Shown piece by piece: positions 10,681 to 60,067 of a stretch of DNA of 64,000 nucleotides. The notes under the pieces are model-generated. The model ran no database searches, was not told where the DNA came from, and was given only the letters and a program-made list of their open reading frames with translations. This DNA is from an uncultured bacterium (lineage in GTDB: Bacteria > Fidelibacterota > Marinisomatia > Marinisomatales > J089). Where the stretch lies: NCBI GenBank assembly GCA_964535735.1, contig CAZHTM010000005.1:13017-77016 (forward strand), read 5' to 3'. Position 1 is the stretch's first letter, and each line of letters begins with the position of its first letter. The position numbers and the translations under genes were made by a program.

Positions 10681-10683
10681 GCA

Positions 10684-15210: not shown

Positions 15211-15576
15211 ATGTCAAAACGTGTCTTAGTCGTTGATGACGATCCCAATATTGTCAATCTTATCCGCGCATTTTTAACCAAAATTGGTTTTGAGGTTTTG
15301 GAAGCCAATGATGGCCTGGATGGTCTTCAAAAAGCCCGATCTGAAAATCCGGATCTGATTATTTTGGACGTGATGCTACCTAAATTGGATGGTTTTAAAT
15401 TCAGTCGCTTACTGAAATTCGATGAATCCCACCGCAATATTCCCATCCTTATGTTAACAGCTAAATCCGATGAAAAAGATGAAAAAATCGGACTAGCGAT
15501 GGGAGCCGATGCTTACCTAACGAAACCATTTAAAAACCAGGAATTAATAGACCAGGTGAAAGCCCTTGTTGCCTGA
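15211..15576 (+). CDS. Stand-alone CheY-like response regulator receiver
   Basis: VLVVDDDPNI, DLIILDVMLPKLDG, ILMLTAK and AYLTKP supply all canonical receiver residues. Confidence 0.85.
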   Translation: MSKRVLVVDDDPNIVNLIRAFLTKIGFEVLEANDGLDGLQKARSENPDLIILDVMLPKLDGFKFSRLLKFDESHRNIPILMLTAKSDEKDEKIGLAMGADAYLTKPFKNQELIDQVKALVA

Positions 15577-16354
15577 TTCACTTTGGATAGTTCTGGCGAT
15601 CATCCTGGGATTGATTGTTGGTTCTTTTCTCAATGTTGTCATTGCTCGTCTTCCTAAGGGCGAGTCCATTGTCTCTCCCCCGTCGCATTGCCCGGCATGT
15701 GAAACACCATTACGTTGGTGGCAAAACATTCCTGTCTTGAGTTTTTTTCTCCTGGGACGAAAGTGTTATTTCTGTCACGAACCCATTTCTTGGCGATACC
15801 CCTTAATTGAAAGTTTAACAGCTATCCTTTTTGGCTTGACGGCTGCACGTTATGGCTTTTCTGTGCAAACTCTTAGCACTTTTATTTTTATTGGCTACCT
15901 AATCCCGATTGCACTTATTGATTACGAACACTTTTTAATCTTCGACGCCATGTCTTATTCAGGAATGGGGTTGGGTCTCATTATAGCAGCGATTCCCCAC
16001 CAATATCCTCTTCTGTTCCCGGCGATTCTGGGAGGTGTAGTAGGGGCCGGCAGTTTATTCGTCATTCGAGGATTAGGAAATCTCCTGTTTCATAAGGAAT
16101 CCATGGGACTGGGAGATATTAAACTGGCAGGATTGATCGGTATTTTTTTAGGGTGGCAACTGACACTGATGAGCTTTTTTTCCGCCGCCGTCTTGATTGT
16201 TTTGGTCTATATAGTAAAAGCCGTGATCCGATCACAACCGCGCCCTGATGAGCGCTATCCTTTCGGATTTTATTTTTCGGTGGTTGCTGCCGGGATGCTA
16301 TTTTGGGGTAACAATCTCCTGGAAATCTATCTAAATTATCTACACATGCGATAA
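15566..16354 (+). CDS. pilD: Prepilin peptidase/N-methyltransferase (A24 family)
   Basis: CPACETPLRWWQNIPVLSFFLLGRKCYFC zinc motif, catalytic Asp contexts LIDYEH and GLGDIKLAG. TTG start. Confidence 0.85.
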   Translation: MLPDSLWIVLAIILGLIVGSFLNVVIARLPKGESIVSPPSHCPACETPLRWWQNIPVLSFFLLGRKCYFCHEPISWRYPLIESLTAILFGLTAARYGFSVQTLSTFIFIGYLIPIALIDYEHFLIFDAMSYSGMGLGLIIAAIPHQYPLLFPAILGGVVGAGSLFVIRGLGNLLFHKESMGLGDIKLAGLIGIFLGWQLTLMSFFSAAVLIVLVYIVKAVIRSQPRPDERYPFGFYFSVVAAGMLFWGNNLLEIYLNYLHMR

Positions 16355-16365
16355 CGTATCACATT

Positions 16366-18018
16366 ATGGCCAAGAAACGAATAGGTGAAATGCTGATTGA
16401 TGCTGGTGTGCTAACACCGGAGCAGTTGCATGAAGGTTTAAAAAAGCAAAAAGAAACTGGCGAACCTCTTGGTAAAGTCATCACCAAACTGGGATTTCTT
16501 ACCGAACATGATTTTATTATCGCCCTGAGTCAGCAACTTGATCTTCCTTATCTTTTTCTCAACAATTATAATTTTGATCCAGAAGTAAAATCGTTAATTC
16601 CGGAAGAATACGCCCGACATAATAAAATTATTCCACTCTTTAAAATTGGCTCAACTCTGATGATCGGTATTTCCGATCCCACCAATATTGACATTTTTGA
16701 TGAATTATCGCGCATGACCAAAATGGAAATTGAGCCCACCCTCTGCGCTGAAAGTGAAATTTTAGAATCTCTGGATGAAATATACGGGACGTCCCGTGAT
16801 ATGGACTCGGTCTTGCAGAAAATACGCACCATGGATCGGGATAAAAAACAACGGCCGGACGAAGAATCCCCCATGATCAAGCTGGTGGAATTGATGTTCG
16901 AACAAGCGGTAAAAATGAAAGCCAGTGACATCCATATTGAGCCGGAAGAATCCCTCCTGAGAGTTCGATACAGAATTGACGGTGTGATGCAAACCGTTTA
17001 TGAACATCCTGCAGATTTACAGGATGAAATCATTTCTCGCGTTAAGGTGATGTCAAATTTAAACATCACTGAAAAACGCACGCCTCAGGATGGTCGATTC
17101 AACATGGTTATTAGCGAAAAACCCTTTGATTTCCGGGTATCTACGCTCCCAACAGTCTATGGAGAAAATGTGGTGATCCGTATTTTGGATCAAAGTAGCA
17201 TTCAAATGAAACTGGCCGATTTGGGTATGGCACCGGAAATGTTAAAGGCGTTTAACCAGGCGCTCCATGAACCGAATGGCATTATTTTGGTCACCGGGCC
17301 TACCGGGTCTGGAAAATCCACAACACTATATGCTTCCCTGAATACTATTAATTCACCGGATAAAAATATCATTACGATTGAGGATCCGGTGGAATATCGG
17401 CTGCCTTTAATCCGGCAATCCAATGTCAATCCTAAGATCGGTCTCTCATTCGCCGCAGGATTGCGCTCCATTCTCCGGCAGGATCCAGATATTATAATGG
17501 TGGGTGAAATTCGTGACTCGGAAACCGCGACCGTTGCTGTGCAGGCGGCTATGACCGGTCACTTGGTTCTCAGTACCTTGCACACCAACGACACTGTCAG
17601 TTCGGCAACTCGGTTAATTGATATGGGTGTGGAACCATTTTTAGTGGCATCTTCTACAAAAGCCATACTGGCTCAACGACTGGTTCGAAAAATCTGTAAT
17701 CGGTGTAAAATGGCCTATGAGCCAGAAAAAGAAATTCTAGAAGAGTTGAATCTGGCCAACATTAAACAAAAAATAAAATTCTATAAAGGTAAGGGATGTA
17801 AAAACTGTCGGCACACCGGTTATAAAGGTCGAGTTGGACTTTATGAGATTTTGCTTATTACCGAAGGGGTACGACGATTAATTGTCGCGAAAGCCGGATA
17901 TGATAACCTTTTAGATAAAGCCTTGGAAGAAGGCCTGATTCAGTTAAAATATGATGGAATTCGAAAAGTTATCCAGGGAATAACCACTCTGGATGAAGTT
18001 TTGAGGGTATCGTCCTGA
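16366..18018 (+). CDS. pilB: Type IV pilus extension ATPase (PilB/MshE type) with N-terminal MshEN-like c-di-GMP-binding motifs
   Basis: Walker A GPTGSGKST and the tetracysteine CNRC...CKNC. The N-terminus has RIGEMLIDAGVLTPEQLHEGLKKQ, a 5-aa spacer, then LGKVITKLGFLTEHDFIIALSQQ. Confidence 0.9.
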   Translation: MAKKRIGEMLIDAGVLTPEQLHEGLKKQKETGEPLGKVITKLGFLTEHDFIIALSQQLDLPYLFLNNYNFDPEVKSLIPEEYARHNKIIPLFKIGSTLMIGISDPTNIDIFDELSRMTKMEIEPTLCAESEILESLDEIYGTSRDMDSVLQKIRTMDRDKKQRPDEESPMIKLVELMFEQAVKMKASDIHIEPEESLLRVRYRIDGVMQTVYEHPADLQDEIISRVKVMSNLNITEKRTPQDGRFNMVISEKPFDFRVSTLPTVYGENVVIRILDQSSIQMKLADLGMAPEMLKAFNQALHEPNGIILVTGPTGSGKSTTLYASLNTINSPDKNIITIEDPVEYRLPLIRQSNVNPKIGLSFAAGLRSILRQDPDIIMVGEIRDSETATVAVQAAMTGHLVLSTLHTNDTVSSATRLIDMGVEPFLVASSTKAILAQRLVRKICNRCKMAYEPEKEILEELNLANIKQKIKFYKGKGCKNCRHTGYKGRVGLYEILLITEGVRRLIVAKAGYDNLLDKALEEGLIQLKYDGIRKVIQGITTLDEVLRVSS

Positions 18019-19441: not shown

Positions 19442-20671
19442 ATGCCCACTTATACCTATAAAGCTATCGATGAATCCGGCCTTTTAGTTACTGGTGATTT
19501 TGAAGCTTCCAATTATGGCGAGGCTCTGGACTATTTGCAACATAGTCTGGAATACACCCCCATTAAGGTTAAGCAGAAAAAGGAATCGGCAATCCTTTCC
19601 TTCCTGCAACGGTTTCAAAAAGTTCCGGTTCAAGAAGTAATGAATTTCACGAAACAGCTTCATACATTGGAACATGCGGGTGTACCGGTGCTCACATCCA
19701 TCAGCGCATTGCGAGAACAAGCTGAGACAGCCGCCTTTAAAGCTGTTTTGGATTCAGTATACCACGATCTTGAGGGCGGATTGAGTTTTTCAGAGGCGCT
19801 ATCAAAACATCCAGATGTTTTTCCTGAATTTTATATTCATAGTGTCAGAGCCGGTGAAGAGGCTGGTGCCATGGAAGAAGTACTACTCAAGTTGAATGAT
19901 CAACTTGGCCGACAAGATGACATTCAACGCCGAATTAAAAAAGCGCTCCGCTATCCGATGATGGTTATGACGGCCATTGTCATCGCATTTGTGATTATCA
20001 TTACTTTTGTGCTTCCAAACTTCATTAAAATGTTTGCCATGGGTGGACAGGCAGCTTTACCACTGCCTACACGAATTCTTATCGGCATTAGTTATGTCTT
20101 TAAAAATTATTGGTATATGATATTCGGCGGGATTTTAGCAATTGGCTTTCTATTCAATTATTACATCCATACCGAACAAGGACGGTATAACTGGGACCGA
20201 TTTAAGCTGCACGTTGTTGTTTTTGGTAAACTATTTCATATGGTTTCTATCGCACGGTTTACATCCACCTTGCAAACATTGAATAAAAGTGGATTACCTA
20301 TTCTCCAATCACTTGAAATTGGTGCGAAGTCGACTGGGAATAGGGTTGTTGAAAAAGCAATCAATGAAATTGCTGTTGGTGTTAAGCAGGGACAGGGATT
20401 AACGATACCTTTCCGAAAAAGTAAAATGTTTCCACCATTAGTCATCCAAATGATTTCGGTAGGTGAAGAATCAGGTTCTTTGGATGAAATGCTTGTGAAT
20501 GTATCGGAACATTACGACAGTTTGGTTAATGATGCCGTTGACGGGTTGATGACAGCCTTAGAACCTATTATGACTGTGATAATCGGAAGTTTAGTGGCTC
20601 TCCTAGCAGCAGGAATGTTCTTGCCCATGTGGGGTATGATAGAAGCTTTCCAAGGGGCTCCCGGGGGTTAA
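19442..20671 (+). CDS. pilC: Type IV pilus platform protein PilC (GspF family)
   Basis: Two T2SSF repeats with three TM segments, 409 aa. Confidence 0.85.
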   Translation: MPTYTYKAIDESGLLVTGDFEASNYGEALDYLQHSLEYTPIKVKQKKESAILSFLQRFQKVPVQEVMNFTKQLHTLEHAGVPVLTSISALREQAETAAFKAVLDSVYHDLEGGLSFSEALSKHPDVFPEFYIHSVRAGEEAGAMEEVLLKLNDQLGRQDDIQRRIKKALRYPMMVMTAIVIAFVIIITFVLPNFIKMFAMGGQAALPLPTRILIGISYVFKNYWYMIFGGILAIGFLFNYYIHTEQGRYNWDRFKLHVVVFGKLFHMVSIARFTSTLQTLNKSGLPILQSLEIGAKSTGNRVVEKAINEIAVGVKQGQGLTIPFRKSKMFPPLVIQMISVGEESGSLDEMLVNVSEHYDSLVNDAVDGLMTALEPIMTVIIGSLVALLAAGMFLPMWGMIEAFQGAPGG

Positions 20672-20762: not shown

Positions 20763-20822
20763 ATAAGTTAAATTAGAATTAGATAAAATTTGCTAAACAA
20801 GACACAACCAGGAGAATACATA

Positions 20823-21233
20823 ATGAAACGCAACCAAGAAGGATTCACCCTGATTGAATTGGTCATGGTGATTGTGATTCTGGGTATCTTAGCCGCCGTG
20901 GCAATTCCGAAATTTGCTAATCTGACAACTCAGGCGAATGAAGCCGCTGAAGATGGTGTAATTGGAGGACTGAGATCCGGAGTATATACGTACAGTGTCA
21001 ATCAAATGGCTGCAGGATTTGGTCAATCATATCCTACGGATCCATTTGACGGTCTTGATCAAAAACCCACTGGATATACATCTACTTCCCCCACTCCCGC
21101 CGCTAACAATACCTGGGGCTTTAATTCAACAAGCAATTATATATACCACCAACGAAGTAATGGTGACAAATATTATTGGTCCTATTCTTCCGGCACGGGA
21201 ACTATTGGAACGCGGACAACTACTGCTCCATAA
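20823..21233 (+). CDS. pilA: Major type IVa pilin (136-aa precursor, 7-aa leader)
   Basis: MKRNQEG|[24 protein letters not shown] class III signal. AGGAGA RBS. I moved the start from 20790 to ATG 20823. Confidence 0.85.
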
Positions 21234-26121: not shown

Positions 26122-27123
26122 ATGCCACAAAAGCTAAATAGATTTGAACGATATTTAAGTTCCAATTTAGGGTATGGGTCATCTTCTTTTACTTATAAAG
26201 AACTATTATTATTTAATGAAAAACTATTAGCTCAAATCCGGGCAGGCCAAATTCTCTCGGATGCACTTGAAGCTGTATTTGATACCACGGGAAATCGCGT
26301 CCAGAGGATGGTGCTATTCAGTATTACAAACGCCGTAAAAGCCGGTGCCCCTCTCTCCCAGGCTATGCTTACATTTAAAGATATTTTCCCTAATTTTTAT
26401 ATTGCCATGATTATGGCGACGGAAAGAAGTGGAAAAATGATTCAGGGTCTGGAAGCCATGAGCTTACACCTGAAGAACGAAAATAAATTGTTCGATTATT
26501 ACAATGTCTCTATGTTTTACCTGAGACTTCTGATTTATCTATTTTTAGCGGGAATGGTCTATTTATTTGTACGCTTGGGGATTTTAACTCTCTCTCTTGA
26601 CAGCATTCTCTACTCCACCGGCACATTAGCCTTTCTTGCTTTAATAGGTAGTTGGGTTAGTCGTATTCTACAGAAAAATGAAGTACTGAAAGAAAATATA
26701 TTAAACATTATACCATTTGCCGGAAAGATTCATAACTTGGCCTTGATCAGCAGTTATTGTTTTCTTTTTAATGTTTTTCATAGATCAGGTGTCCCCATTT
26801 CCCAGATCAATGGTTTACTTGTCAATTATATTGGCGGAGCTCATTTAGCTCAGGATATCCAACGACTAGGAGAATTGAGCCAGTCCAATCCCGACCCCGA
26901 TCGTTTACCTAAATATTTCACAGTTCTTCCGGATACTCTGGCGCGTGAAATTATTCTCTTTGAACATGGTAAGACTAAGTTCAATACCATTCAAAATTAT
27001 TCTCAGTTTGTCAGCATTGAAATCGATGACATTGCTGCTCAGATTCTTAGCTTGGAAAAACGAATTTTAATGGGCTCTTTAAGTATTGGCGCTTTAGTTA
27101 TTTATTTGTCCTTGATCTATTAA
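26122..27123 (+). CDS. Divergent, short GspF/PilC-family platform-like protein (333 aa)
   Basis: One recognisable T2SSF repeat (LSDALEAVFD...VKAGAPLSQAMLTFKDIFPNFYIAMIMATERSGKMIQGLEAM) plus TM helices. The second repeat is weak. Confidence 0.6.
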   Translation: MPQKLNRFERYLSSNLGYGSSSFTYKELLLFNEKLLAQIRAGQILSDALEAVFDTTGNRVQRMVLFSITNAVKAGAPLSQAMLTFKDIFPNFYIAMIMATERSGKMIQGLEAMSLHLKNENKLFDYYNVSMFYLRLLIYLFLAGMVYLFVRLGILTLSLDSILYSTGTLAFLALIGSWVSRILQKNEVLKENILNIIPFAGKIHNLALISSYCFLFNVFHRSGVPISQINGLLVNYIGGAHLAQDIQRLGELSQSNPDPDRLPKYFTVLPDTLAREIILFEHGKTKFNTIQNYSQFVSIEIDDIAAQILSLEKRILMGSLSIGALVIYLSLIY

Positions 27124-27245: not shown

Positions 27246-28286
27246 ATGGTCGATATTCTGGAATTGTTGAGATTTACTATTTCTTCCGGCGCTTCAGACC
27301 TCCATTTAAATGCGGGAGCCCCGCCCATGGTGAGAGTTGACGGAATGATGAAAAAAATTGATGTTCCTGATCTGCTACCAGAAGATATCCATCGTCTGAT
27401 TTATGATATCATGACTGACCAAGAACGAAAACGTTTTGAAGAAAATTGGGAATTGGATTTTTCTCGCGAAATCGGGTCCATAGGACGTTTTCGTGTAAAT
27501 GTTTATTACCAGAATGATGGAAAGGCTGCTGTCTTTCGTACCATTCCTACCAAAATTTTAACCATGGAAGAACTCAATTTACCCGATGTGATTAGAAAAT
27601 TATGCAATTTGGAGAAAGGGCTGGTCTTGGTTACCGGTCCAACCGGTAGTGGTAAATCCACAACCCTGGCAGCCATGGTAGACTATATCAATTCCGTTCA
27701 ACGATCCCATATCATTACTATTGAAGATCCGATTGAATTTGTTCATAAAAGTCGGTCTTGTCTAATTAGCCAACGGGAAGTGGGCCGCGATACTAAATCT
27801 TTTTCAAATGCTCTGCGGAGCGCATTGCGGGAAGATCCGGATGTAATCCTGGTAGGTGAAATGCGAGATCTGGAAACAATTGCATTGGCTATCAGCGCTG
27901 CGGAAACCGGACATCTTGTATTTGGAACGCTACACACCAATAGCGTGGCAAAAACCGTGGATCGAATCGTTGATGTATTTCCCACGAATCAGCAAGGACA
28001 AATCCGATCTATGTTTGCCGATTCTATTGAGGGTATCATTTCACAAATACTTTTACGTCGGAAAGAAGGGAAAGGTCGGGTGGCCGCTTTAGAAATATTA
28101 GTGGGAACAAATGCGATTCGAAGTTTGATCCGGGAAAATAAAACATACCAGATTGAATCAGCACTACAGACGGGATCATCCCTGGGTATGTGTACCATGG
28201 AACAAGCCCTTCGAAAGCTACTACAGGATGGAGCTATATCACGTGAAGCGGCCCAAGAAATTATTCCTAAAATGGACGTAACCTGA
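27246..28286 (+). CDS. pilT: PilT retraction ATPase, copy 2 (most canonical)
   Basis: GASDLHLNAGAPPMVRVDG, GPTGSGKST and AIRSLIRE, 346 aa. Confidence 0.9.
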   Translation: MVDILELLRFTISSGASDLHLNAGAPPMVRVDGMMKKIDVPDLLPEDIHRLIYDIMTDQERKRFEENWELDFSREIGSIGRFRVNVYYQNDGKAAVFRTIPTKILTMEELNLPDVIRKLCNLEKGLVLVTGPTGSGKSTTLAAMVDYINSVQRSHIITIEDPIEFVHKSRSCLISQREVGRDTKSFSNALRSALREDPDVILVGEMRDLETIALAISAAETGHLVFGTLHTNSVAKTVDRIVDVFPTNQQGQIRSMFADSIEGIISQILLRRKEGKGRVAALEILVGTNAIRSLIRENKTYQIESALQTGSSLGMCTMEQALRKLLQDGAISREAAQEIIPKMDVT

Positions 28287-28307
28287 TTTCACCCACGGGA
28301 GGTAACC

Positions 28308-29426
28308 ATGAATTTTAGCGATCTGATGAAATTAATGGTGGAAAAAGATGCCACCGACCTTTACATCTCAGTCGGAAATCCACCGATGTATCGAATTGGG
28401 CATGAAATCTATCCTGTAAGTTCTACCAAGCTTACTCCCGCTATGACCGAAAAAATTGCATATTCATTTTTAGATGAAAAACAGGCCAGGGAATTTCAAG
28501 AACATCATGAGATCGATATAGCCTATTCGGTACCGGGAGTTGGTCGGGTGCGGATAAATATTTTCCTGCAACGTGGATCAGTTGGATTAGTATTGAGACA
28601 TATCAAGTCGGAAATCCGCACTCTGGAAGACCTGGGCATGCCGGCTATTATCAGTAAAATTTGTGATACACCTCGTGGACTTGTTCTCATCACCGGTGCC
28701 ACCGGCAGTGGTAAATCCACAACGTTGGCAGCCATGATCGACCACATCAATTCAACCCGTACGGGGCACATCGTTACCATCGAAGACCCCATGGAATTTT
28801 TACATTACCATAAAAAATGTATTGTCACCCAACGTGAAGTGGGAATGGACACCGAATCCTATGCCGTCGCATTGAAAAGTGCCTTACGTCAGACACCGGA
28901 TGTTCTACTGATAGGAGAAATTCGAGATCGGGAGACCATGAAGGCGGCTTTAACTTTTGCAGAAACCGGTCATTTAGTTTTCAGTACCTTACATTCAGTC
29001 AATGCATCACAAACACTTGAACGGATCATGAATTTCTTTCCCGTTGATAATCACCCAATGATTCGTCAACACCTTTCATTAAACTTACGCGCGATCATCT
29101 CTCAGCGACTCGTCACTCGCAAGGATGGTTCCGGGATGGTAGCTGCCCTGGAGATTCTGGTGAATACATCACGAATTAGTGACTTGATGTATAAAGGTCT
29201 CATTGATGAAGTAAAAACAACCATTGGCGCATCCCGTGAGTCGGGAATGCAAACTTTTGATCAACATCTTTTTGACCTTTACAAGGAAGGGATAATTTCC
29301 ATGGATGATGCCCTCACAGCAGCAGACAGCGCCAATGATTTGAAACTACATATGAAAATGGAAGGTGCCGAAGTGGAAGCCGATCGTAATATGATGAATG
29401 AAACCATTACGTTTCGCGATGATTGA
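28308..29426 (+). CDS. pilU: PilU-like PilT-family ATPase
   Basis: DATDLYISVGNPPMYRIG and GATGSGKST. It lacks the AIRNLIRE motif (SRISDLMYKG) and has an extended C-terminus, as in PilU. Confidence 0.8.
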   Translation: MNFSDLMKLMVEKDATDLYISVGNPPMYRIGHEIYPVSSTKLTPAMTEKIAYSFLDEKQAREFQEHHEIDIAYSVPGVGRVRINIFLQRGSVGLVLRHIKSEIRTLEDLGMPAIISKICDTPRGLVLITGATGSGKSTTLAAMIDHINSTRTGHIVTIEDPMEFLHYHKKCIVTQREVGMDTESYAVALKSALRQTPDVLLIGEIRDRETMKAALTFAETGHLVFSTLHSVNASQTLERIMNFFPVDNHPMIRQHLSLNLRAIISQRLVTRKDGSGMVAALEILVNTSRISDLMYKGLIDEVKTTIGASRESGMQTFDQHLFDLYKEGIISMDDALTAADSANDLKLHMKMEGAEVEADRNMMNETITFRDD

Positions 29427-29638
29427 TCATGATTTCGATTATTATTATCGCCGTATTAGTGTTAGTCGTGGGTATGGCCTACTTACTTTTCCCCCAGTCG
29501 CTTTTCAAGTGGAACCAGTGGGCAAACCGGGTCATCTTCAAGGACGATATCTTCATCCGGAAAAACAGGGTTACAGGCGCCGGTCTGATCATAGCGGGTC
29601 TCTGGCTCCTGTGGATTTACTTCCACAGTCTCACCTAA
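29423..29638 (+). CDS. Small 2-TM membrane protein (71 aa), paralog of 36403-36609
   Basis: A hydrophobic hairpin with a conserved loop (FP...WN..ANRVI..DD......R.TGA). I chose it over the overlapping frame 29398-29685. ATG 29429 is an alternative start. Confidence 0.55.
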   Translation: MIMISIIIIAVLVLVVGMAYLLFPQSLFKWNQWANRVIFKDDIFIRKNRVTGAGLIIAGLWLLWIYFHSLT

Positions 29639-29689
29639 ATAACGCTGTGATTTTGGTCACAATACCCCAACCGCAGATAGTATAGGCTT

Positions 29690-30196
29690 ATGATGAAGAA
29701 AACAGGTAATCACGTGCAACAAAGATCATCAAAATCCGGATTCACCTTAATCGAACTAGTTATGGTCATTCTTTTATTAGGAATTTTATCCACTATTGCC
29801 ATTCCCAAAGTAACAGACATTATACAAACTGCCCGATTGAAAGCTACAAAAGGTGAGATGACGGAATTAAAAAAGGCCATTATGGGAGATCCATCTTCTG
29901 TGGCTGGTGGCGTCTTAATTGATAAGGGATTTAATGGCGATATTGGGCATCTTCCCGTAACTTTAGATGATCTTGTGAATCAGGGATCCTATCCCAATTG
30001 GAATCGATTTACCCAATCTGGATGGAACGGACCTTATATTTCTGAAGATTTTTCATCCGACAATGAATGGAAAATAGATGCCTGGGGAAACACATACGAA
30101 ATATTTAGTCCTGCCGCCGGAGATACCAGCCTGCTCAGCTATGGTCCGGATGGCACCAAAGGAACCAGTGATGATCTGAGCCTTCATCTTAAATAA
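29690..30196 (+). CDS. GspG-like major pseudopilin (168 aa)
   Basis: KSG|[22 protein letters not shown] class III signal and C-terminal DAWGNTYEI...SYGPDGTKGTSDD, typical of T2SS GspG. Confidence 0.8.
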   Translation: MMKKTGNHVQQRSSKSGFTLIELVMVILLLGILSTIAIPKVTDIIQTARLKATKGEMTELKKAIMGDPSSVAGGVLIDKGFNGDIGHLPVTLDDLVNQGSYPNWNRFTQSGWNGPYISEDFSSDNEWKIDAWGNTYEIFSPAAGDTSLLSYGPDGTKGTSDDLSLHLK

Positions 30197-30208: not shown

Positions 30209-33046
30209 ATGGAAAAACATCACTTGATAAACACACCCAAAAAAGCATCTGGGTTTACCCTTTTTCAGCTCGTTGCACTGATTGTCGTGCTGGGAATCTT
30301 GGCAGCTACAGCTATCCAGGTAGTGGTGATACTGACCCCGTCAAGTTGGGAAGCCGAAGCATTAGCGGAAATGGAAAAAATACGTTGTGGGATTGTTGGA
30401 TGTACCGAAGGCGACTGCGGCTTTATTGGCGATAATGGAGCCATTCCATCTCAACTACAGGATTTACTGGAGGACCCGGGTTCTGGTCAATATTGTAACT
30501 GGCTAGGCCCCTATTTGGATGTAACCTTCGTTGACAACCCCTATGATTATCTCTATGATCCGTGGGGGAACCCTTATATCTGGGACACACAAAACTTAAC
30601 GCTAACTTCGACCTCTGGAGGAAATGGCGCCGAACCCCTAACCATTTCACTGGCCAATGAAGTTACCGATCTATTAAGTAATACCGTTCAATATCAATTC
30701 ACTGATGCCAATGGTTTGCCATTAGATTCATCATCCATTGATGTCTATGTGAATTACGGTTGTGGAGACATTAAACTTGACTATAGCGCTTCCCTTGGTT
30801 TTTATGGAGAAGGATTTCCAACGTGTGGACTGGAAGTCGTTGTCGTGTCTGGTGTCGATACGCTTCATCCACCTGCTTGTCCTGACCCGCCCTGTGATCC
30901 AGCGCCAATAACTTGTGATTACGGAACGATACAATATTCAGGATCAGCAGCCTTAAGCGGAACCATGAATGACGTCATCTCTTTTCAGGCCAGCGCCACA
31001 GGAGATTGTCAGTTCGATATTAAGAGTTTGTCCTTCGAATGGTCAGGTTCCAACTGGTGTAACCAAACACCTTATTTAGAAACATTTAAAGTAGGTGGTA
31101 GCACTTATTGGGATTATCAAGTCGATAACAACGGCGTTCGCGCTGTGTCTGGTCAAGAGATGGTCTTGAGAAGTACTCTTATTGCAAACCCCGGCACTAC
31201 ATTGAATATTACTGAAGTAAAATATGCCGATGCTCGCACCGGGTCAGCAAATCCCATTCAATTAGATGGGACCACATTCAATTTCTTTCTTTATTCTGAT
31301 TTAGCGCCCACTCAGTTGATTTCTTTCACCGCACCGGGGACTCCCCCGACGGCCGGTTCTTTGATCTATTCGAGTGGGACGCTTGAAACTTCCGGGAGTG
31401 ACCGCCAAAATATTTCCTTCGATATTACTAATCCAGGTGAATGTTGCGTCACAATCAGTGGAATGATCGTTTCTTGGGACACAACATCCACAATTTCCTA
31501 TCTGGAAGAAATTAAAATCGGAGGAACTACGTATTGGAAAGATAAGGAATGCAGAATTGCCTCCGGTCAATATTTAGCATTGGATGATATTGTCACTATT
31601 TGTGATGCCACCAAAACTATAGAATTAAAAAGTTTCACTACCGATCGTGGTTCAGATTGGGGGGACTATTATTCCGATCCCACAAGCACCTCTACAGTAA
31701 GCGGGTCAATTAACATCAATCCTAATAATAGCACATATAATCAATTCTATCTTGTGAAAACTGATGGTAGTCTGATTACCCGGGATGATTTAACCCAATC
31801 GGCTTCTGATTTCCAGGGAAGCGCTATCTGGGTTCATGTTAAACCCAAAGGAAATGGTAACCAGAACGGCCTCACGGTCAATGGATCATCCTATGCCGTG
31901 GATAACGGAAAACAATATGATATTTCTTCCAGCAATATGACCGTGAATCTCTACAACGATAATCGTTCCGGGGGACTGGCATTAGGTCAGTGGTGGATCG
32001 ATATAACCGCCACCGACGCCGTTATCGCTGAAAATGGCCATGGCTATTACTTGGATGATGAATCCAATTCATATTCAGAATACATCCATCGATATGCGTG
32101 TGAAAATCTGGAGGGCGGCGGCGGCGACCATGGGGATCATAATGACCATGGAGATCATGATGATCATGATGATCATGGGGATCATAACGACCATGGAGAT
32201 CACGACGACCACGGTGATCACAATGATCATGGGGATCATAGTGGTAGTTCCGGTTCATATTATTCACCTCCTGATTGTCCTGATGACGACGGAGATGGTA
32301 AAATTACCATAACGCATTATCCTTCCGGGGATACAGACCATCCTCAGGTTATCTGTATTTCAACCGATGCCTGGGACGCACATAAAGCCCATGGTGACGA
32401 GTGCGGAACACCGGCTCAAGAAGATAGCTATGAATGTTCAACAGAGAAAGATCATGTAAGCGGGAACGGAGATAAAGTGGATATGCGGGGACATCAAATT
32501 GAAGTCACCTTCATCGCTACAGATGGTACCCAGTATCCTTTTGTATTCAATACCGAATCCCGGAACGGACCTAATCTTGTTATTTACAATAACAATATCG
32601 ATGTCTCCGGGTCTGGACATTATACTGTGGAATTCGACGTGAAAAACACAGGAGATAGCCCCTTACAAATCAAACAAATAACGGCATCGTGGGATAAATC
32701 CAATGCCTATGCCTCCAAATTCAAAGTTGGTAGTACAACCTACTGGAATGCGGGTAAAGATGAACGGTTATCCAGTGGTGGCGTTTTGGATCTTGATAAT
32801 TATCTATATTTGGAAGCCAATAAACGCGTTACACTGAAGTACTATAAATTCAAAGACAGTCTAACCGGTGGAGACTATACAGACATGCGCGGTGTTGATT
32901 TCACGGTCATTTTTACAGGTGTTGGAGATGATAATGACTATACTCTTTCCTTCACAACACCCGGTACCAGTGGAGATGATCACAACGATCATGGGGACCA
33001 CGATGACCATGGAGACCATGGTGACCACGATGATGATGATCATTAA
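30209..33046 (+). CDS. Giant pseudopilin-like protein P1 (945 aa): prepilin signal with Gln at +5, GspG-like head, three copies of an unnamed beta domain, two Asp-His repeat tracts
   Basis: KKASG|FTLFQLVALIVVLGILAA; GFIGDNGAIPSQLQDL; DPWGNPYIWD; repeat units around aa 241-376, 385-478 and 795-918; DH tracts at aa 640-677 and 923-945. Confidence 0.8.
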   Translation: MEKHHLINTPKKASGFTLFQLVALIVVLGILAATAIQVVVILTPSSWEAEALAEMEKIRCGIVGCTEGDCGFIGDNGAIPSQLQDLLEDPGSGQYCNWLGPYLDVTFVDNPYDYLYDPWGNPYIWDTQNLTLTSTSGGNGAEPLTISLANEVTDLLSNTVQYQFTDANGLPLDSSSIDVYVNYGCGDIKLDYSASLGFYGEGFPTCGLEVVVVSGVDTLHPPACPDPPCDPAPITCDYGTIQYSGSAALSGTMNDVISFQASATGDCQFDIKSLSFEWSGSNWCNQTPYLETFKVGGSTYWDYQVDNNGVRAVSGQEMVLRSTLIANPGTTLNITEVKYADARTGSANPIQLDGTTFNFFLYSDLAPTQLISFTAPGTPPTAGSLIYSSGTLETSGSDRQNISFDITNPGECCVTISGMIVSWDTTSTISYLEEIKIGGTTYWKDKECRIASGQYLALDDIVTICDATKTIELKSFTTDRGSDWGDYYSDPTSTSTVSGSININPNNSTYNQFYLVKTDGSLITRDDLTQSASDFQGSAIWVHVKPKGNGNQNGLTVNGSSYAVDNGKQYDISSSNMTVNLYNDNRSGGLALGQWWIDITATDAVIAENGHGYYLDDESNSYSEYIHRYACENLEGGGGDHGDHNDHGDHDDHDDHGDHNDHGDHDDHGDHNDHGDHSGSSGSYYSPPDCPDDDGDGKITITHYPSGDTDHPQVICISTDAWDAHKAHGDECGTPAQEDSYECSTEKDHVSGNGDKVDMRGHQIEVTFIATDGTQYPFVFNTESRNGPNLVIYNNNIDVSGSGHYTVEFDVKNTGDSPLQIKQITASWDKSNAYASKFKVGSTTYWNAGKDERLSSGGVLDLDNYLYLEANKRVTLKYYKFKDSLTGGDYTDMRGVDFTVIFTGVGDDNDYTLSFTTPGTSGDDHNDHGDHDDHGDHGDHDDDDH
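32126..32239 (+). repeat. In-frame imperfect 9/18-nt tandem repeat encoding (DHx)n: DHGDHNDHGDHDDHDDHGDHNDHGDHDDHGDHNDHGDH
   Basis: 13 consecutive Asp-His dipeptides spaced by G/N/D. The DNA units gaccatggRgatcataaY recur with synonymous wobble differences. Confidence 0.9.
32975..33043 (+). repeat. C-terminal Asp-His tract DDHNDHGDHDDHGDHGDHDDDDH ending P1
   Basis: Read directly from the ORF. It immediately precedes the stop codon at 33044-33046. Confidence 0.9.
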
Positions 33047-33066: not shown

Positions 33067-33098
33067 TCCTGGTCGGGGAACATCTTCCTTGACCAGGA
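33067..33098 (+). terminator. Extended hairpin between P1 and P2 (possible attenuator/partial terminator)
   Basis: TCCTGGTC-GG-GGAA-CATC-TTCC-TT-GACCAGGA followed by TTATTCTATTC. It lies in the 63-nt gap before ATG 33110. Confidence 0.35.
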
Positions 33099-33109
33099 TT
33101 ATTCTATTC

Positions 33110-34732
33110 ATGACATCCAAATCACATAGCATCGTGGCCTCCAACATCAAAAAATCCGGTTTTACTCTCATTGAACTTGTGATCGTAATCATTATCATGG
33201 GCATTCTAGCAGGCATTGCCGTGCGCACCACAACCCGGATTGCCCTGAATGCCAAATTCAATGAAACGTATGAAGAAATGCAATTGTTGGTAAAAGCCAT
33301 TATTGGGGATTCCAATATTATTCAGAATGACGTTCGTACCAGCTTCGGTTATGTAGGCGACACTGGCGTGATGCCACCGACACTGGACGACTTAATGTCT
33401 AATGTATCAGGCAAAACAGGTTGGGCCGGGCCGTATATGGACGCGGGTTATACTCAAGATCCTGACTTTTATAAACGGGATGCCTTCGGAAAACAATACC
33501 GATATGTTTTACCCACTGTAGGTACCGAGGCTCCTAAGATTTGGACACCTACGGATGGTGATACAATTACTGTAAAGATTGCCACTAGTTTAAACGCCAT
33601 TTTAAATAATACAATTAAATTGCGATTATACAGCGAAAATGGCGTCGAAATTAACGGGACAAATGGATCAGTGGCAGTTAGCTACAGTGGAGCCTGGCAT
33701 CCCCTGACGTATAGTTCATCAACAGGATTTAAAATTAACACTGTTCCTATCGGATTGCGTCAACTCCGTGCAATTTCCGCGGGAGATACTGTCTATAAGA
33801 CAATTTCAGTAGAAGAGGCAAACGGAACAACGGGAAATACTTTAACAATGACGGTATACCCTGATTATGGTAATTTGACATATGTTTCCGGATCGGCTTC
33901 TATCTCCGGCGCGGGAAATAACCAGGTTTCCTTTACGGTGACTAACACCGGAACGCCTACGTTTGATATTGATAGAATGACTATTACCTGGGAAGCATTA
34001 CCAAACGATTGCTGGAATTGTAAAAAGGCTTACTTGGCCGAAGTCCAGAAAACCTCGACATACTGGAAATGGAATACCAATGGTCGGTCAGCTTTGGTTC
34101 CCAGTGGCGCTCAGATCGTTTTAGATGGTACTATGTCCCTCTATACCGGACCTAATTCCATCGGTCCACTCATATTTTTGGATGGCACCGATGGTACCAC
34201 GGCCAATACTATCAATATGAACGCCACACGTTTTACGATCCGGTTTGAATCATCCACCGCTCCTTCACAGACAATCACCTTTGATAACGCAACAACGTGT
34301 GCTGCACCCAGTCTATCCCAAAATGGAGCCGCCACCCTGATCGACGGAGCGCGTTTATCGGTACCAGTACAAAATCCCGGTGTATTGCCCGTCACGATTA
34401 CATCCATGACCGTATCCACTGATATTACCACATCGACCGCCTATCTGGATCGTATTCGTTTCGATGGCGCAGATGTCTGGCTGGCCAACGTAACCGCCTG
34501 TAGCAATGTGGCTCGTCCCACGGTAGCAAACAACGCTACGGGAACAGCCGATTTTCTCATTTGCACCTATGCCCTCCCGACAATTAACGCCGGATCAACC
34601 GCTACTGTAGAAATACGGCTAAGGAAAGATCCTACTGGAACAACAAATGTTCCTGTTGCTGTCGGTCAAAGTTATATCCTGGTGTTTAATCTCCAGTGTG
34701 GTAGCTCCCAAACGATTGCCTTCACGTTGTAA
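33110..34732 (+). CDS. Giant pseudopilin-like protein P2 (540 aa)
   Basis: KKSG|FTLIELVIVIIIMGILAGIAV; GYVGDTGVMPPTLDDL; DAFGKQYRY; two C-terminal repeat domains with CWNC at 34010-34021. I moved the start from TTG 33089 to ATG 33110. Confidence 0.8.
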   Translation: MTSKSHSIVASNIKKSGFTLIELVIVIIIMGILAGIAVRTTTRIALNAKFNETYEEMQLLVKAIIGDSNIIQNDVRTSFGYVGDTGVMPPTLDDLMSNVSGKTGWAGPYMDAGYTQDPDFYKRDAFGKQYRYVLPTVGTEAPKIWTPTDGDTITVKIATSLNAILNNTIKLRLYSENGVEINGTNGSVAVSYSGAWHPLTYSSSTGFKINTVPIGLRQLRAISAGDTVYKTISVEEANGTTGNTLTMTVYPDYGNLTYVSGSASISGAGNNQVSFTVTNTGTPTFDIDRMTITWEALPNDCWNCKKAYLAEVQKTSTYWKWNTNGRSALVPSGAQIVLDGTMSLYTGPNSIGPLIFLDGTDGTTANTINMNATRFTIRFESSTAPSQTITFDNATTCAAPSLSQNGAATLIDGARLSVPVQNPGVLPVTITSMTVSTDITTSTAYLDRIRFDGADVWLANVTACSNVARPTVANNATGTADFLICTYALPTINAGSTATVEIRLRKDPTGTTNVPVAVGQSYILVFNLQCGSSQTIAFTL

Positions 34733-36345
34733 TGAACACCCGTCGATATTCCCCTGTCCCCGGATTTACTCTGATAGAGCTGGTAATGGTTATCGTAATT
34801 ATGGCCATTGTTAGTGCCGTGGGGATTCGTACGATTGCCCGAGTAAATGCAAACCGGAACTTCAATATTACCATGGAAAACATGCTTAATTTAAAGTATG
34901 CCATCGTAGGTAATCCCAAAATGGTAGAAAACGGTGTCAGGATTGATTACGGTTATGTAGGTGATACAGGCCAACTACCAACCAGTTTGAATGACCTTAT
35001 GACTGACCCCGGCGTTGCCGGTTGGGATGGACCTTATGGGGACTATACCGGAATTCAAGAAGATCCTACTGCCATATTTCGGGATGGTTGGGGAAAGACC
35101 ATCACGTATACTGTACCAAACAACAATACCGATCCCATTACACTGTCCAGTGCCGGAGGAGGATCACCTATTGAATTGATCGTCGCTAACAATAAAAATG
35201 AAATTTTAAACAACACTGTTGCCCTTCGGGTTAGAAATAAAGATGGATATCCGCTCAGAGGTGATGATGCTACTGTCCAAATCCAATACGGTGGCGGCAC
35301 CTGGCAAACCCTATCGTACGCAACAACTTTAGGCTATTATATTGATACCGTTCCGATTGGCATGGCCACCTTACGGTTTATTGTGGCGGGCGATACGACC
35401 CTTCGCCAGCTCAGCGTGGGTCCCAACAATTCCACGACTAGCCCTAACGAAGGATTGGAATACACCGTAAATCCCGTTTTTGGAACACTAAACTACGTGG
35501 CCGGTTCCGCAAGTCTAGGAGGCACCAATAACTCGGAATTAACCTTTACAGTGAATAATTCTGGTAGTACGATTATGGAAATCGACCAAATCAGTGTTGG
35601 TTGGTCGAATTCATCCTGTTGGGAATGCGATTACGCTTATCTGGCGAACATCACGGTTAATGGAACCGATTATTGGCGCTGGAATACAACGAATCGTAAT
35701 GCTTTGGCATCTACTGACGCTCGGTTGGTGTTGGACCAGAAACTCTCCCTTTCATCCGGAAATACAACCATTGGTCCCCTTGCTTTCCAGGATCTGGTAG
35801 ATGGTACCGGTTCGCCCCAACCTATGAATGCGGTCACGTTTCAGATTACGTTTTTATCGGATCTGACGCCGAATCAAATTGTTAGTTTTTCTACGGGAGG
35901 CACCTGTTCGCCGGCAGTCATTTCCTATTCGAATTTATCCAAACCACTGAATTATCGCGTACGGTGTCAGCTGGATAATACGGGGAATGCTAAAGCCACC
36001 ATCACCGGTATGAATATTAAGTGCGATGTGAGTCCTTCACCTTACCTAGATGTTATTTCTTTTGTAGACTTAACAAACATTTACTGGCAAGCCAATCAGT
36101 CCTGGTGTGGTAATCAATCCCGACAATTGGTTGATAATTTGAACGGAGCTGAGATCACATTCTGCAAAACACAACCGCCAGTAACGGTCCCAGGAGGGAG
36201 TTACATATTGTTAAATCGGATGGACTTTTATACGAGTGCTCAAGCGGATGATAACACTAAAGCAGATGTTACCGGTGGAAATTTCACGTTAACACTCCAT
36301 TTCAAATGCGGATCTGATCAAACGATCTCTTTCACCATGCCTTAA
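34732..36345 (+). CDS. Giant pseudopilin-like protein P3 (537 aa)
   Basis: MNTRRYSPVPG|[16 protein letters not shown]; GYVGDTGQLPTSLNDL; DGWGKTITY; CWEC at 35617-35628. The ATG overlaps the P2 stop by 1 nt (TAATG). Confidence 0.8.
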   Translation: MNTRRYSPVPGFTLIELVMVIVIMAIVSAVGIRTIARVNANRNFNITMENMLNLKYAIVGNPKMVENGVRIDYGYVGDTGQLPTSLNDLMTDPGVAGWDGPYGDYTGIQEDPTAIFRDGWGKTITYTVPNNNTDPITLSSAGGGSPIELIVANNKNEILNNTVALRVRNKDGYPLRGDDATVQIQYGGGTWQTLSYATTLGYYIDTVPIGMATLRFIVAGDTTLRQLSVGPNNSTTSPNEGLEYTVNPVFGTLNYVAGSASLGGTNNSELTFTVNNSGSTIMEIDQISVGWSNSSCWECDYAYLANITVNGTDYWRWNTTNRNALASTDARLVLDQKLSLSSGNTTIGPLAFQDLVDGTGSPQPMNAVTFQITFLSDLTPNQIVSFSTGGTCSPAVISYSNLSKPLNYRVRCQLDNTGNAKATITGMNIKCDVSPSPYLDVISFVDLTNIYWQANQSWCGNQSRQLVDNLNGAEITFCKTQPPVTVPGGSYILLNRMDFYTSAQADDNTKADVTGGNFTLTLHFKCGSDQTISFTMP

Positions 36346-36402: not shown

Positions 36403-36609
36403 ATGAATCCAATTAATTTCATTTTAATAATCGCTATCCTCGCCCTGGTCTTCGGTCTCTTATTGATGTTTAATCCCGAGTTTGTAAAAGAATTAAATGA
36501 ACTGGGAAATAAGATTATTGCCACCGATGAACAAATGCTGGCACATCGCTACATTACTGGTGCTGTTTTAGTGATCTTGAGTCTGATTCTGATTGTTATT
36601 AGTTGGTGA
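36403..36609 (+). CDS. Small 2-TM membrane protein (68 aa), paralog of 29423-29638
   Basis: MNPINFILIIAILALVFGLLLMFNPEFVKELNELGNKIIATDEQMLAHRYITGAVLVILSLILIVISW aligns with the 71-aa protein at G, P, N, N-[RK]-[VI]-I, D-[DE] and TGA. Confidence 0.55.
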   Translation: MNPINFILIIAILALVFGLLLMFNPEFVKELNELGNKIIATDEQMLAHRYITGAVLVILSLILIVISW

Positions 36610-40681: not shown

Positions 40682-40799
40682 TTCTCAACTCAAATTAAGT
40701 CATCTATGAACATGTTTAAGCCGAAAAAATATCCTTTGTTTAGCATGACTTGCAGGGTTGCGAAATAATACCGGGTGGTTTAGTTTCTGCAACATTCCC

Positions 40800-42413
40800 A
40801 TGGTTACAATAACAAAATCCCATCGCCATCAATATTCGGGTTTTTCACTCATGGAACTCGTAATGGTCATGATCATTATCGCGATCCTTAGCGGCATTGG
40901 TGCTCGGTCGCTAATGCGTGTTTTTGACAATGCCAATGTGAACGGAACAATTGCTGAAATGCGTATTTTGGCCGAAGGGATCGTTGGAAATCCCGATATT
41001 ATGGAAAATAATATTCGAACCAATTATGGATACGTTGGCGATACGGGTCAACTCCCCCCTACTCTTAGGGATTTGGTATCCAATGAATCCGGTGTCACAG
41101 GATGGGATGGTCCGTATATCGATGTCGGTTTTTCTGATGATCCTGATTATTACCTGACCGATGCCTGGGGTAATAATTATGTGTATGTTGTACCCTCTGA
41201 CCCCACGCAACCTCCAATTATCTACACCCCTGCCGACGGGGATACCATCACTAAAAAAATCGGGAATAGTGTAAATGAACTGCTGAACAACACGATAAAA
41301 ATCAGACTATTAACTTCGAAGGATGTGGAAATAGACGACTCATCGGGTAAGGTGGAAGTGAAATATGCAGGTTCTTACCATACATTGAGTTTTAATTCGA
41401 CCGAAGGCAATTTCACGGGTTCGGTACCGATAGGAATTCATTTAATCCGGGCGATATCTGCCGGCGATACGGTGTATAAATCAGTATCCGTCTCACCGGG
41501 AAATCGAACCACCAACAACAGTATTGAAATCACAGTCTATGCCAGTTATGGTCATGTCACGTATGTTGATGGATCAGCTTCGGTGGAAACAACTACTCAA
41601 AACGAAGTGTACTTTGATGTGCATAATTCAGGAAGCACCACGATGCCCATCAATAAAATGACCCTCACCTGGGAAGCAGCCACCCAAAATTGCTGGAATT
41701 GTGCCACACCCTATTTGGAAGAAGTCAAAGTGGCAGGCACTTCTCACTGGAAATGGGATGTGAATAGTACCGCTTTATCCCCCAGCGATGCGCAAATAGT
41801 TCTGGGTGCCAAAATCCAAATCTATTCCGGCGATATGACCTTGGGTCCCTTTATTTTTAAAGATGCCGCCGATGGGACGGGCGCAGCCGTTGATATGCGG
41901 GGCACGACGTTTACCATTAAACTTCAGTCCCAGATCGCTCCAACTCAAACCATCATATTTACAACTGAAGGAGTGTGTTCTGACCCTAATCTTTCACTCT
42001 CTGGAACCGTCACTAGTGATACACGCAACGTGTATTTTCCTTTAAAAAACACGGGTTTTGTGACCACCGAATTGACCAGTATCCAAGTTAGTACAAATAT
42101 TTCCGCCTCCACCGCCTACCTGGAAACCGTGTTTCTAGCGGGAAACACGGTGTGGCAAGCTGATAATGCCAATTGTGGTTCGGTCCCCCGCCAACGGATA
42201 GATAGCAATATACAGGCGACTATTCCGTTTTCTAGTTGTAGTTATACTAATCCCAGTTGGACTGCGGGCCAGTCACAAACTCTGCGTATGCGGATTTATG
42301 ACGGCACTACTGGAACGGCCGCGGTGACCGGCGGCTTCTCAGGAATTGTCTTTGATATCACCTATAATTATGCCTGTGGTGCCTCACAGACAACATCCAT
42401 TCCGATCCCATAA
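40800..42413 (+). CDS. Giant pseudopilin-like protein P4 (537 aa)
   Basis: MVTITKSHRHQYSG|FSLMELVMVMIIIAIL; GYVGDTGQLPPTLRDL; DAWGNNYVY; CWNC at 41691-41702. It is co-linear with P2 along its full length. I moved the start from 40758 to ATG 40800. Confidence 0.8.
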   Translation: MVTITKSHRHQYSGFSLMELVMVMIIIAILSGIGARSLMRVFDNANVNGTIAEMRILAEGIVGNPDIMENNIRTNYGYVGDTGQLPPTLRDLVSNESGVTGWDGPYIDVGFSDDPDYYLTDAWGNNYVYVVPSDPTQPPIIYTPADGDTITKKIGNSVNELLNNTIKIRLLTSKDVEIDDSSGKVEVKYAGSYHTLSFNSTEGNFTGSVPIGIHLIRAISAGDTVYKSVSVSPGNRTTNNSIEITVYASYGHVTYVDGSASVETTTQNEVYFDVHNSGSTTMPINKMTLTWEAATQNCWNCATPYLEEVKVAGTSHWKWDVNSTALSPSDAQIVLGAKIQIYSGDMTLGPFIFKDAADGTGAAVDMRGTTFTIKLQSQIAPTQTIIFTTEGVCSDPNLSLSGTVTSDTRNVYFPLKNTGFVTTELTSIQVSTNISASTAYLETVFLAGNTVWQADNANCGSVPRQRIDSNIQATIPFSSCSYTNPSWTAGQSQTLRMRIYDGTTGTAAVTGGFSGIVFDITYNYACGASQTTSIPIP

Positions 42414-59285: not shown

Positions 59286-59333
59286 GGTTTAGTCCTGTAC
59301 TTTATTCTCAAAGATTCAAATGAATGTAAAAGG

Positions 59334-59367
59334 AAGGCCCCCGCTCTCAGATGAAAACGGGGGCCTT
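59334..59367 (-). terminator. GC-rich hairpin between the two cytochrome genes (partial terminator/processing site candidate)
   Basis: AAGGCCCCCG-N14-CGGGGGCCTT, a 10-bp perfect stem, followed on the minus strand by CCTTTTAC. Confidence 0.5.
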
Positions 59368-59390
59368 CTACATAAAGCTATACCAATTGG

Positions 59391-60005: not shown

Positions 60006-60067
60006 CGTATTACCTCTCTTTTTTCTTTTAAGTTTATTAGGTTCAAAAAACATTCACTTTCAAATAC

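Follow-up and report, generated by a model that had tools for sequence, protein, structure and literature searches.

Which of the pilins encoded at this locus would be laid down first and sit at the distal tip of the filament? The locus lies in a 64,000-nt stretch from an uncultured bacterium of the Marinisomatales (contig CAZHTM010000005.1, positions 13,017 to 77,016 of the forward strand; the whole stretch is hereafter the window). Beside type IVa pilus genes it encodes a modular pilin-like protein, P1, in which glutamine replaces the conserved glutamate at mature position 5 (Glu5). In published work, Glu5 of a pilin neutralises, by pairing, the N-terminal amine of the next subunit up, and pilus filaments grow from tip to base; a single minor pilin without Glu5 caps the tip (PMC10191384, PMC5207764, PMC7541494, PMC9934059). 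The original prediction had invoked this rule by way of GspK of the T2SS (type II secretion system), and the rule itself is real and established in the papers just cited. Since P1 has no Glu5, we therefore read it, under this charge-pairing rule, as a first, distal subunit only. Our best explanation is that P1 is the first, tip-capping subunit of the pilus, a reading that we hold with a probability of about 0.55.

The only prepilin of the window without Glu5

P1 and its N-terminal elements are as follows (window coordinates).

30209..33046, + strand: P1, modular pilin-like protein of 945 amino acids (aa) with Gln at mature position 5, the proposed first, tip-capping subunit (open reading frame [ORF] translation, alignment, modelling)
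30209..30253, + strand: class III leader peptide of P1, MEKHHLINTPKKASG, with Gly-1 at its end (Gly-1 and Phe+1 invariant in the orthologue alignment)
30254..30343, + strand: hydrophobic alpha1N of P1, FTLFQLVALIVVLGILAATAIQVVVILTPS (alignment; modelled helix 18-63)
30266..30268, + strand: CAG, codon of Gln5 of mature P1, Gln20 of the precursor (ORF reading)

The ORF opens with MEKHHLINTPKKASGFTLFQLVALIVVLGILAATAIQVVV and has all the features expected of a prepilin, namely a leader that is short and basic, with Gly-1 followed by Phe+1, and a helix of at least about 20 hydrophobic residues. Its N terminus reads MEKHHLINTPKKASG/FTLFQLVALIVV, also written MEKHHLINTPKKASG/FTLFQLVALIVVLGILAATAIQVVV (the slash is the predicted cleavage point), and the leader runs through Gly-1 into alpha1N as KKASG/FTLFQLVALIVVLGILAATAI. 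Phe1 of the predicted mature protein begins at 30254, and cleavage after Gly15 would give an FTLFQ start.

Written as a degenerate DNA pattern, G-F-[TS]-L-[IM]-E occurs at five sites of the window versus 0.11 expected by chance, and the five sites are PilA, the GspG-like (G-like) gene, P2, P3, and P4. Two independent scans, one strict and one based on hydrophobicity, found prepilin-like N termini in exactly six genes, among which P1 is the sole one without Glu5. The predicted difference, Gln at +5 in P1 and Glu5 in PilA, the G-like pilin, and P2 to P4, was thus borne out by the CAG codon, the pattern, and both scans. Because of Gln5, P1 also misses the models of the N-terminal methylation motif: PF07963 (N_methyl) and TIGR02532 (GFxxxE) did not match it at E≤0.01, while they matched PilA, the G-like pilin, and P2 to P4.

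Gln5 is conserved in the P1 family

P1-type proteins form only seven clusters (49 to 100% identity) in a collection of 5.8 billion proteins, one of them annotated as a Candidatus Neomarinimicrobiota metagenome-assembled genome. A second homologue search with P1 residues 1-630, which sidestepped word saturation by the Asp/His (DH) tracts, returned the same seven proteins. All seven share the invariant block GFTLFQLVALIVVLG, Gln5 included, and alpha1N with Gln5 is the most conserved stretch of their alignment. An exhaustive phmmer search with P1 residues 1-480 against 1.84 billion representatives gave 492 matches; in the set of 156 proteins made up of the matches listed and the P1 orthologues, 13 have Gln5 and 119 have Glu5. 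The nearest matches outside the P1 orthogroup, among those listed, are P0008, P0010, and P0026 (36, 31, and 27% identity); all have Gln5, as do their relatives P0157, P0158, and P0159. Polar Gln thus occupies position 5 in 13/13 cluster representatives, that is, in the seven orthologues and in all six of these distant positional homologues (27 to 36% identity), and every neighbouring pilin has Glu5. The original prediction had proposed this alignment as a check and named general retention of Glu5 among P1 orthologues as counterevidence; no such retention was found.

Two loci encode Gln5 by CAG and four by CAA, and the codons around it show many synonymous differences. Conservation across two codons amid synonymous change indicates that Gln5 is kept by selection on the protein. 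An origin of Gln5 by chance or as an assembly or sequencing artefact was rejected, given its conservation in 13 representatives and the use of both CAG and CAA.

This conservation bears on a different view, in which the leader of P1 serves membrane insertion and cleavage only. P1 would then stay unpolymerised, either anchored in the inner membrane as a periplasmic protein or released at the surface, and the loss of Glu5 would reflect freedom from the constraint of assembly. The missed N_methyl and TIGR02532 models are in line with such a protein, and Glu5 is needed for ordinary pilin assembly (PMC10191384). However, relaxed constraint predicts variation, whereas alpha1N with its Gln is invariant and the best-conserved part of P1, Gln persists in 13/13 sequences through synonymous codon change, and P1 strictly co-occurs with the G-like pilin and the Glu5 paralogues. 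We consider an unpolymerised P1 quite unlikely.

One non-Glu5 gene in each pilin module

P1 belongs to a module of pilin genes that is bracketed by two small membrane proteins.

29423..29638, + strand: small membrane protein of 71 aa with two hydrophobic segments, upstream bracket of the module (sole Pfam match, a weak one to DUF4345)
29690..30196, + strand: small GspG-like pilin of 168 aa, Glu5 (adjoins the Gln5 gene on its upstream side in 6/6 loci)
33089..34732, + strand: P2, modular pilin, Glu5, paralogue of P1 (ORF, similarity search)
34732..36345, + strand: P3, modular pilin, Glu5 (ORF, N-terminus scan)
36403..36609, + strand: small membrane protein of 68 aa with two hydrophobic segments, downstream bracket of the module (no match in Pfam; its L001 and L046 counterparts are DUF6199 proteins)
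40758..42413, + strand: P4, modular pilin, Glu5 (FSLMELV) (away from the cluster in the window, adjoining it in L001 and L003)

The genes are packed as in an operon, with 12 nt between the G-like gene and P1 and an overlap of P2 with P3. In two other loci with P1 orthologues (L001 and L003), the order is PilA, a LamG protein, and, further on, a half-size T2SSF protein, PilT, PilT/U, a small membrane protein, the G-like pilin, P1, three Glu5 modular pilins, and a small DUF6199 protein. Three more distant Marinimicrobia loci (L046, L047, and L048) have one or two PilT genes, a membrane protein of 71 to 74 aa, a G-like pilin with Glu5, a Gln5 protein of 523 to 817 aa, a single Glu5 modular pilin of 515 to 520 aa, and DUF6199. 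In all six loci, the window included, the gene directly 3' of the G-like pilin is the sole non-Glu5 pilin of the module, and all PilA copies, the G-like pilins, and the one to three modular paralogues carry Glu5. The Gln5 protein is also the largest pilin of its locus in 6/6 cases, by a margin of 8 residues in L048 (523 versus 515). A profile search of genome contigs with the seven-sequence alignment retrieved generic GFTLIELV pilins, and 0/42 loci were relevant among the matches listed.

Some details of the module vary. In the window, P4 is parted from P1 to P3 by a membrane spermidine-synthase-like gene (36639-39080) and a 544-aa gene on the minus strand; the three Glu5 paralogues are contiguous in L001 and L003. 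Small proteins of about 70 aa likewise flank the module in L001, L003, and L046 to L048, the downstream one being DUF6199. A 95-aa ORF called at 29398-29685 in a different frame looks spurious.

Domain architecture of P1

The following regions of P1 were delimited.

30254..30628, + strand: pilin head, residues 16-140, with conserved Cys70 and Cys96 and weak GspG-type matches (profile search, model)
30914..31648, + strand: beta-sandwich repeats 1 and 2, common to P2 to P4 (similarity, AlphaFold2 [AF2])
32120..32239, + strand: DH tract 1, residues 638-677, of variable length among orthologues (alignment, translation)
32276..32407, + strand: Cys/His motif, CPDDDGDGKITITH...HGDECG, also in the distant homologues P0008 and P0014 (alignment)
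32471..32968, + strand: beta-sandwich repeat 3 (similarity, AF2)
32972..33043, + strand: C-terminal DH tract, residues 922-945 (translation)

P1 aligns with P2 at 28% identity over 466 residues (E=2e-39), across the head, an immunoglobulin (Ig)-like linker domain, and two beta-sandwich repeats, and its third repeat matches the same P2 domain; P2 and P4 are 45% identical. Judged from these similarities, P1 is a diverged paralogue of P2 to P4. It has about 480 additional residues, comprising a middle beta domain, the variable DH tract, the Cys/His motif, the third repeat, and the DH tail. The size of 945 aa, the DH tracts, and the three repeat domains had been predicted correctly, and the repeats are three copies of one beta sandwich.

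The P1 head matches TIGR01710 at E=1e-4 (residues 14-127; 22.3 bits versus a cut-off of 88.85) and PF08334 (T2SSG) at E=0.08 (13.4 bits versus a cut-off of 21). T2SSG is matched at E≤0.1 by 12/12 aligned heads of the P1 family, and TIGR01710 is matched by the G-like protein at 1.2e-13; every GspG score is far under its curated cut-off. In the full-length AF2 model (mean predicted local distance difference test [pLDDT] score, 55), the head is unmodelled, and the beta-sandwich domains are confident at residues 235-480 and 755-920, C-terminal to the head. Foldseek with this model returned only generic multi-Ig proteins, with template-modelling (TM) scores of about 0.1. A separate model of the head from 12 sequences (pLDDT 76.5) has a helix at 18-63 followed by short helices and three to four strands. 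Foldseek with the head model gave nothing significant (best, the Streptococcus sanguinis pilus 8pfb, E=0.88), and a PDB profile search with the head matched just the generic pilin alpha1 helix. The sole match in a search of P1 for grafted domain families was a subthreshold DUF1573.

Several features of the sequence deserve mention in their own right. The Cys/His motif (residues 690-733, CPDDDGDGKITITHYPSGD...ICIS..AWDAHKAHGDECG) has no Pfam name, occurs twice in P0014, and may be a metal site. Most of DH tract 1 is missing from P0002, and longer P1 orthologues carry an additional C-terminal DUF7467 (PF24269) domain that P1 of the window lacks. The head cysteines C60, C65, C70, and C96 (30386-30496, residues 60-96) are invariant in P1 orthologues; of these four, the distant Gln5 homologues share only C70 and C96, and none is present in the Glu5 paralogues or the G-like pilin.

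The genetic setting is a type IVa pilus

The pilus genes of the window, besides the module, are as follows.

7062..12578, + strand: PilM-PilN fusion, PilO, a gene at the PilP position, and PilQ secretin (domain search)
15566..16354, + strand: prepilin peptidase PilD (A24_N_bact and Peptidase_A24)
16366..18018, + strand: PilB-type extension ATPase (domain search)
19442..20671, + strand: PilC platform protein (domain search)
20790..21233, + strand: PilA-like major pilin, Glu5 (pattern, profile search)
26122..27123, + strand: half-size PilC-like T2SSF protein of 333 aa with one T2SSF domain, head of the second cluster (domain search)
27246..29426, + strand: two PilT/PilU-family ATPases (27246-28286 and 28308-29426) just upstream of the pilin module (domain search)

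With a third PilT/PilU-family ATPase at 12585-13691, the window holds a full type IVa machine: PilM-PilN fusion, PilO, PilQ, PilD, PilB, PilC, PilA, and three PilT-family ATPases. No GspH/I/J/K-type, PilV/W/X-type, or PilY1-like gene was found in the window or within about 10 kb past either end. GspE, GspL, GspM, GspC, and a second secretin were not found near the module, so that its setting is a type IVa pilus gene set, and membership of P1 in a T2SS was rejected on this gene context. Two further features of these genes were noted. The PilM-PilN fusion (7062-10136, + strand) is extended at its N terminus by about 470 residues of low complexity, highly acidic and rich in Glu, Asp, Pro, and Ser, and the extra half-size T2SSF gene is restricted to lineages with P1 orthologues.

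The same genes could instead be read as belonging to a separate, short, T2SS-like pseudopilus made of the G-like pilin as main subunit, P1, and P2 to P4, and served by the half-size PilC-like protein and the PilT-type ATPases. Such a structure would be periplasmic or secretory and distinct from the tip of the PilA pilus, and P1 could still cap it. The GspG-type heads fit this proposal (T2SSG in 12/12 and TIGR01710 for the G-like protein), as do the NCBI name of P0157, 'GspG', the fact that the cluster has a T2SSF-like gene of its own plus two ATPases of the PilT family, and the presence of canonical-looking PilV/W/X-like genes in L048 as well. However, the T2SS genes named above are missing near the module, the GspG scores all fall far below curated cut-offs, and L046 to L048 lack the extra T2SSF gene, the module there standing directly after pilD-pilB-pilR-pilC-pilA-pilT. 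Moreover, proteins this long (500 to 1000 aa) that combine DH tracts with repeats of a beta-sandwich domain resemble surface-exposed modules. A separate pseudopilus is, in our view, unlikely.

P1 as a proposed tip cap

A subunit without Glu5 could not dock beneath another, would thus only be laid down first, and would end up at the distal tip. The N-terminal amine of P1 would then be paired by Glu5 of the next subunit, the G-like pilin and/or P2 to P4; together these proteins would make up a complex that primes the polymerisation of PilA, and the beta-sandwich repeats, DH tracts, and Cys/His motif of P1, about 800 extra residues, would stand out from the tip and offer an exposed surface for binding. 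Given that a secretin is present and that the pilins carry 350 to 800 extra residues, the tip is therefore the only plausible exit on steric grounds. It is by analogy with studied pili that we infer the processing of P1 by the peptidase, its incorporation into the filament, its tip position, and the identity of its partners.

The conservation of Gln5, the single non-Glu5 gene per module, the paralogy with P2 to P4, and the linkage to pilus genes all support P1 as the cap, and no other, GspK/PilX-like candidate for this role was found when the window and about 10 kb past either end were searched. The published rule applies to GspK and PilX/PilK (PMC7541494; bioRxiv 10.64898/2026.02.12.705559) and to S. 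sanguinis PilA, which is partnered by the modular pilins PilB and PilC (PMC9934059). Ng et al. proposed that a sole non-Glu5 minor pilin that is larger than the major pilin is the first subunit of the filament (PMC5207764).

Experiments on TcpB are the closest to the change seen in P1. Pili are still assembled with the E5Q variant and with the E5V variant; with E5V, retraction is disrupted, which the authors ascribe to a failure of TcpB to insert into the growing pilus; E5Q has the same functional defects in a milder form, and E5D is nearly wild type (PMC5207764). These results bear on the idea that Gln5 is positionally neutral, so that P1 would be one of several bulky minor pilins whose order of entry, at the tip or close to it, is free, and Gln would form hydrogen bonds in place of Glu. 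Gln is indeed polar and isosteric with Glu, unlike the hydrophobic residue of GspK, and P0014, a 781-aa member of the P1-like group, carries Glu5, an indication that Glu is tolerated in a P1-type protein. Nevertheless, the defect of TcpB E5Q beside the nearly wild-type E5D argues that charge matters (PMC5207764), and across lineages, down to 27% identity, each module has exactly one Gln5 gene. We regard a neutral Gln5 as very unlikely.

Several observations weigh against P1 as the tip cap. Besides the Glu5 of P0014, the strictly kept Gln is polar and not hydrophobic as in GspK/PilX-type caps (PMC5207764), which suggests a specific hydrogen-bonding role beyond the loss of charge, and Gln5 might tolerate a subunit above P1. 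Cleavage, assembly, and tip position of P1 are themselves predicted by analogy, and the head model is moderate (pLDDT 76.5) and without a significant structural match. The grouping of P1 with the distant Gln5 proteins is also weakly backed by head-domain trees. In a neighbour-joining tree of the heads, with the first 27 mature residues masked, P1 orthologues group with P0008, P0026, P0010, and the one Glu5 exception, P0014; a second, separate non-Glu5 group has Gln, Gln, Asn, Tyr, His, and His. Bootstrap values are 42% at the node of the first group, 51% at that of the second, and 4% at the one that unites them. Since these values are weak, the link of P1 to the distant Gln5 proteins rests more on positional orthology and on full-length similarity and shared motifs. 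Glu5 was probably lost more than once in this superfamily.

A further point on that side comes from L048, which has, besides its own G-like/Gln5/Glu5 module, canonical-looking PilV-like (155 aa), PilW-like (213 aa), and PilX-like (573 aa; G/HAIIT, no Glu5) genes upstream of pilM (8588-11414). The module may therefore act, at least in some lineages, as an alternative set for priming, one that primes an alternative filament or tip, and not be the sole cap; Myxococcus and cyanobacteria, similarly, have multiple minor-pilin clusters.

Comparison with known systems

The original prediction called P1 GspK-like. As a functional analogy this stands: like GspK/XcpX of the T2SS and PilX/PilK of type IVa pili, P1 is the sole non-Glu5 subunit and the largest of its pilin set and, by the published rule, would be the first-assembled tip cap. 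As a statement of kinship it does not. No GspK or PilX model of Pfam or NCBIfam matched P1, the weak GspG-type hits being the only ones to its head, and residue 5 is polar Gln, whereas theirs is hydrophobic. The P1 gene is the second of its cluster, after the G-like pilin and before the Glu5 paralogues, whereas GspK-type genes stand at the 3' end of a GspH/I/J-type operon. Accordingly, P1 was rejected as a GspK homologue. Its partners are a G-like pilin and its own paralogues instead of GspH/I/J-type pilins, and its extra mass consists of C-terminal beta-sandwich repeats and not of an alpha-domain inserted in the pilin sheet.

The S. sanguinis PilA-PilB-PilC operon is reminiscent of the module in combining one non-Glu5 pilin with Glu5 modular pilins that bear bulky C-terminal modules, and its complex was proposed to fit only at the tip (PMC9934059). 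In that system, however, the non-Glu5 PilA is small and the bulky pilins have Glu5, whereas P1 is both non-Glu5 and the bulkiest; the host of P1 is a diderm with a secretin, and no vWA or lectin domain can be recognised in the P1 modules. TcpB and CofB of type IVb pili are, similarly, minor pilins of large size whose beta-rich domains lie C-terminally, and they start assembly at the tip (PMC5207764), and the natural Gln5 of P1 mimics the engineered E5Q of TcpB. Natural TcpB and CofB keep Glu5, though, and are the sole minor pilins of their systems; sequence similarity to P1 was not detected.

The large pilin-like protein ComZ, from Thermus thermophilus (PMC6561018), likewise carries a big beta-rich module and was argued, on steric grounds, to be a tip pilin that pairs with one small pilin, PilA2. 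Its pilin domain is GspK-like with a beta-solenoid inserted in the fold, whereas the P1 head is GspG-like and its extensions are C-terminal. In Tad pili, a large protein that resembles minor pilins, TadG/CpaL (PMC13533445), fills the PilK role of a system without canonical PilK; it belongs to another class of filament and is likened to P1 by role, not by sequence.

Neighbouring genes

Two ORFs of the window, 203 and 220 aa long, at 58674-60053 (- strand), have the same spacing as two genes of 203 and 204 aa in L052. In a domain scan of the L052 genes, these two L052 genes had weak matches to multihaem c-type cytochromes (Paired_CXXCH and Cytochrome_C7). Past the right end of the window, L052 has more such cytochrome genes, one of them MtrC-like, and NHL-repeat proteins, beside a sigma-54 two-component pair. 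These gene assignments hint at extracellular electron transfer in the same organism.

Implications

The principle that a non-Glu5 subunit caps a pilus is already known; what is new is the carrier. P1 represents an undescribed, Marinimicrobia-restricted family of GspG-type modular pilins, the proposed cap is a diverged paralogue of its own Glu5 partners with a polar Gln at position 5, and conserved small membrane proteins accompany the pilin module.

A bolder and, to us, doubtful extension is that Marinimicrobia pili are primed by an undescribed tip complex in place of the universal PilH/I/J/K-plus-PilY1 set. Its only building blocks would be GspG-type pilins that arose by duplication, namely a small adaptor, modular pilins with Glu5 (one to three of them), and a cap that strictly has Gln5, and the two small membrane proteins would bracket it. 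The cap would hold His/Asp-rich metal-binding tracts at the tip, possibly for attachment to minerals or metals, in an organism with neighbouring multihaem cytochromes.

Marinimicrobia are a widespread uncultured phylum. If P1 is indeed the cap, the rule of one non-Glu5 subunit would extend to a family unrelated to GspK/PilX, and this cap would have arisen by duplication of an ordinary Glu5 modular pilin. It would then lend the charge-pairing model of how pili are initiated independent evidence from evolution. The natural Glu-to-Gln change of P1 is the one made in TcpB E5Q, so the prediction is directly testable by residue swap. A likely exposed tip protein of Marinimicrobia pili would also have been identified, and P1 would be the first candidate for determining what these pili bind.

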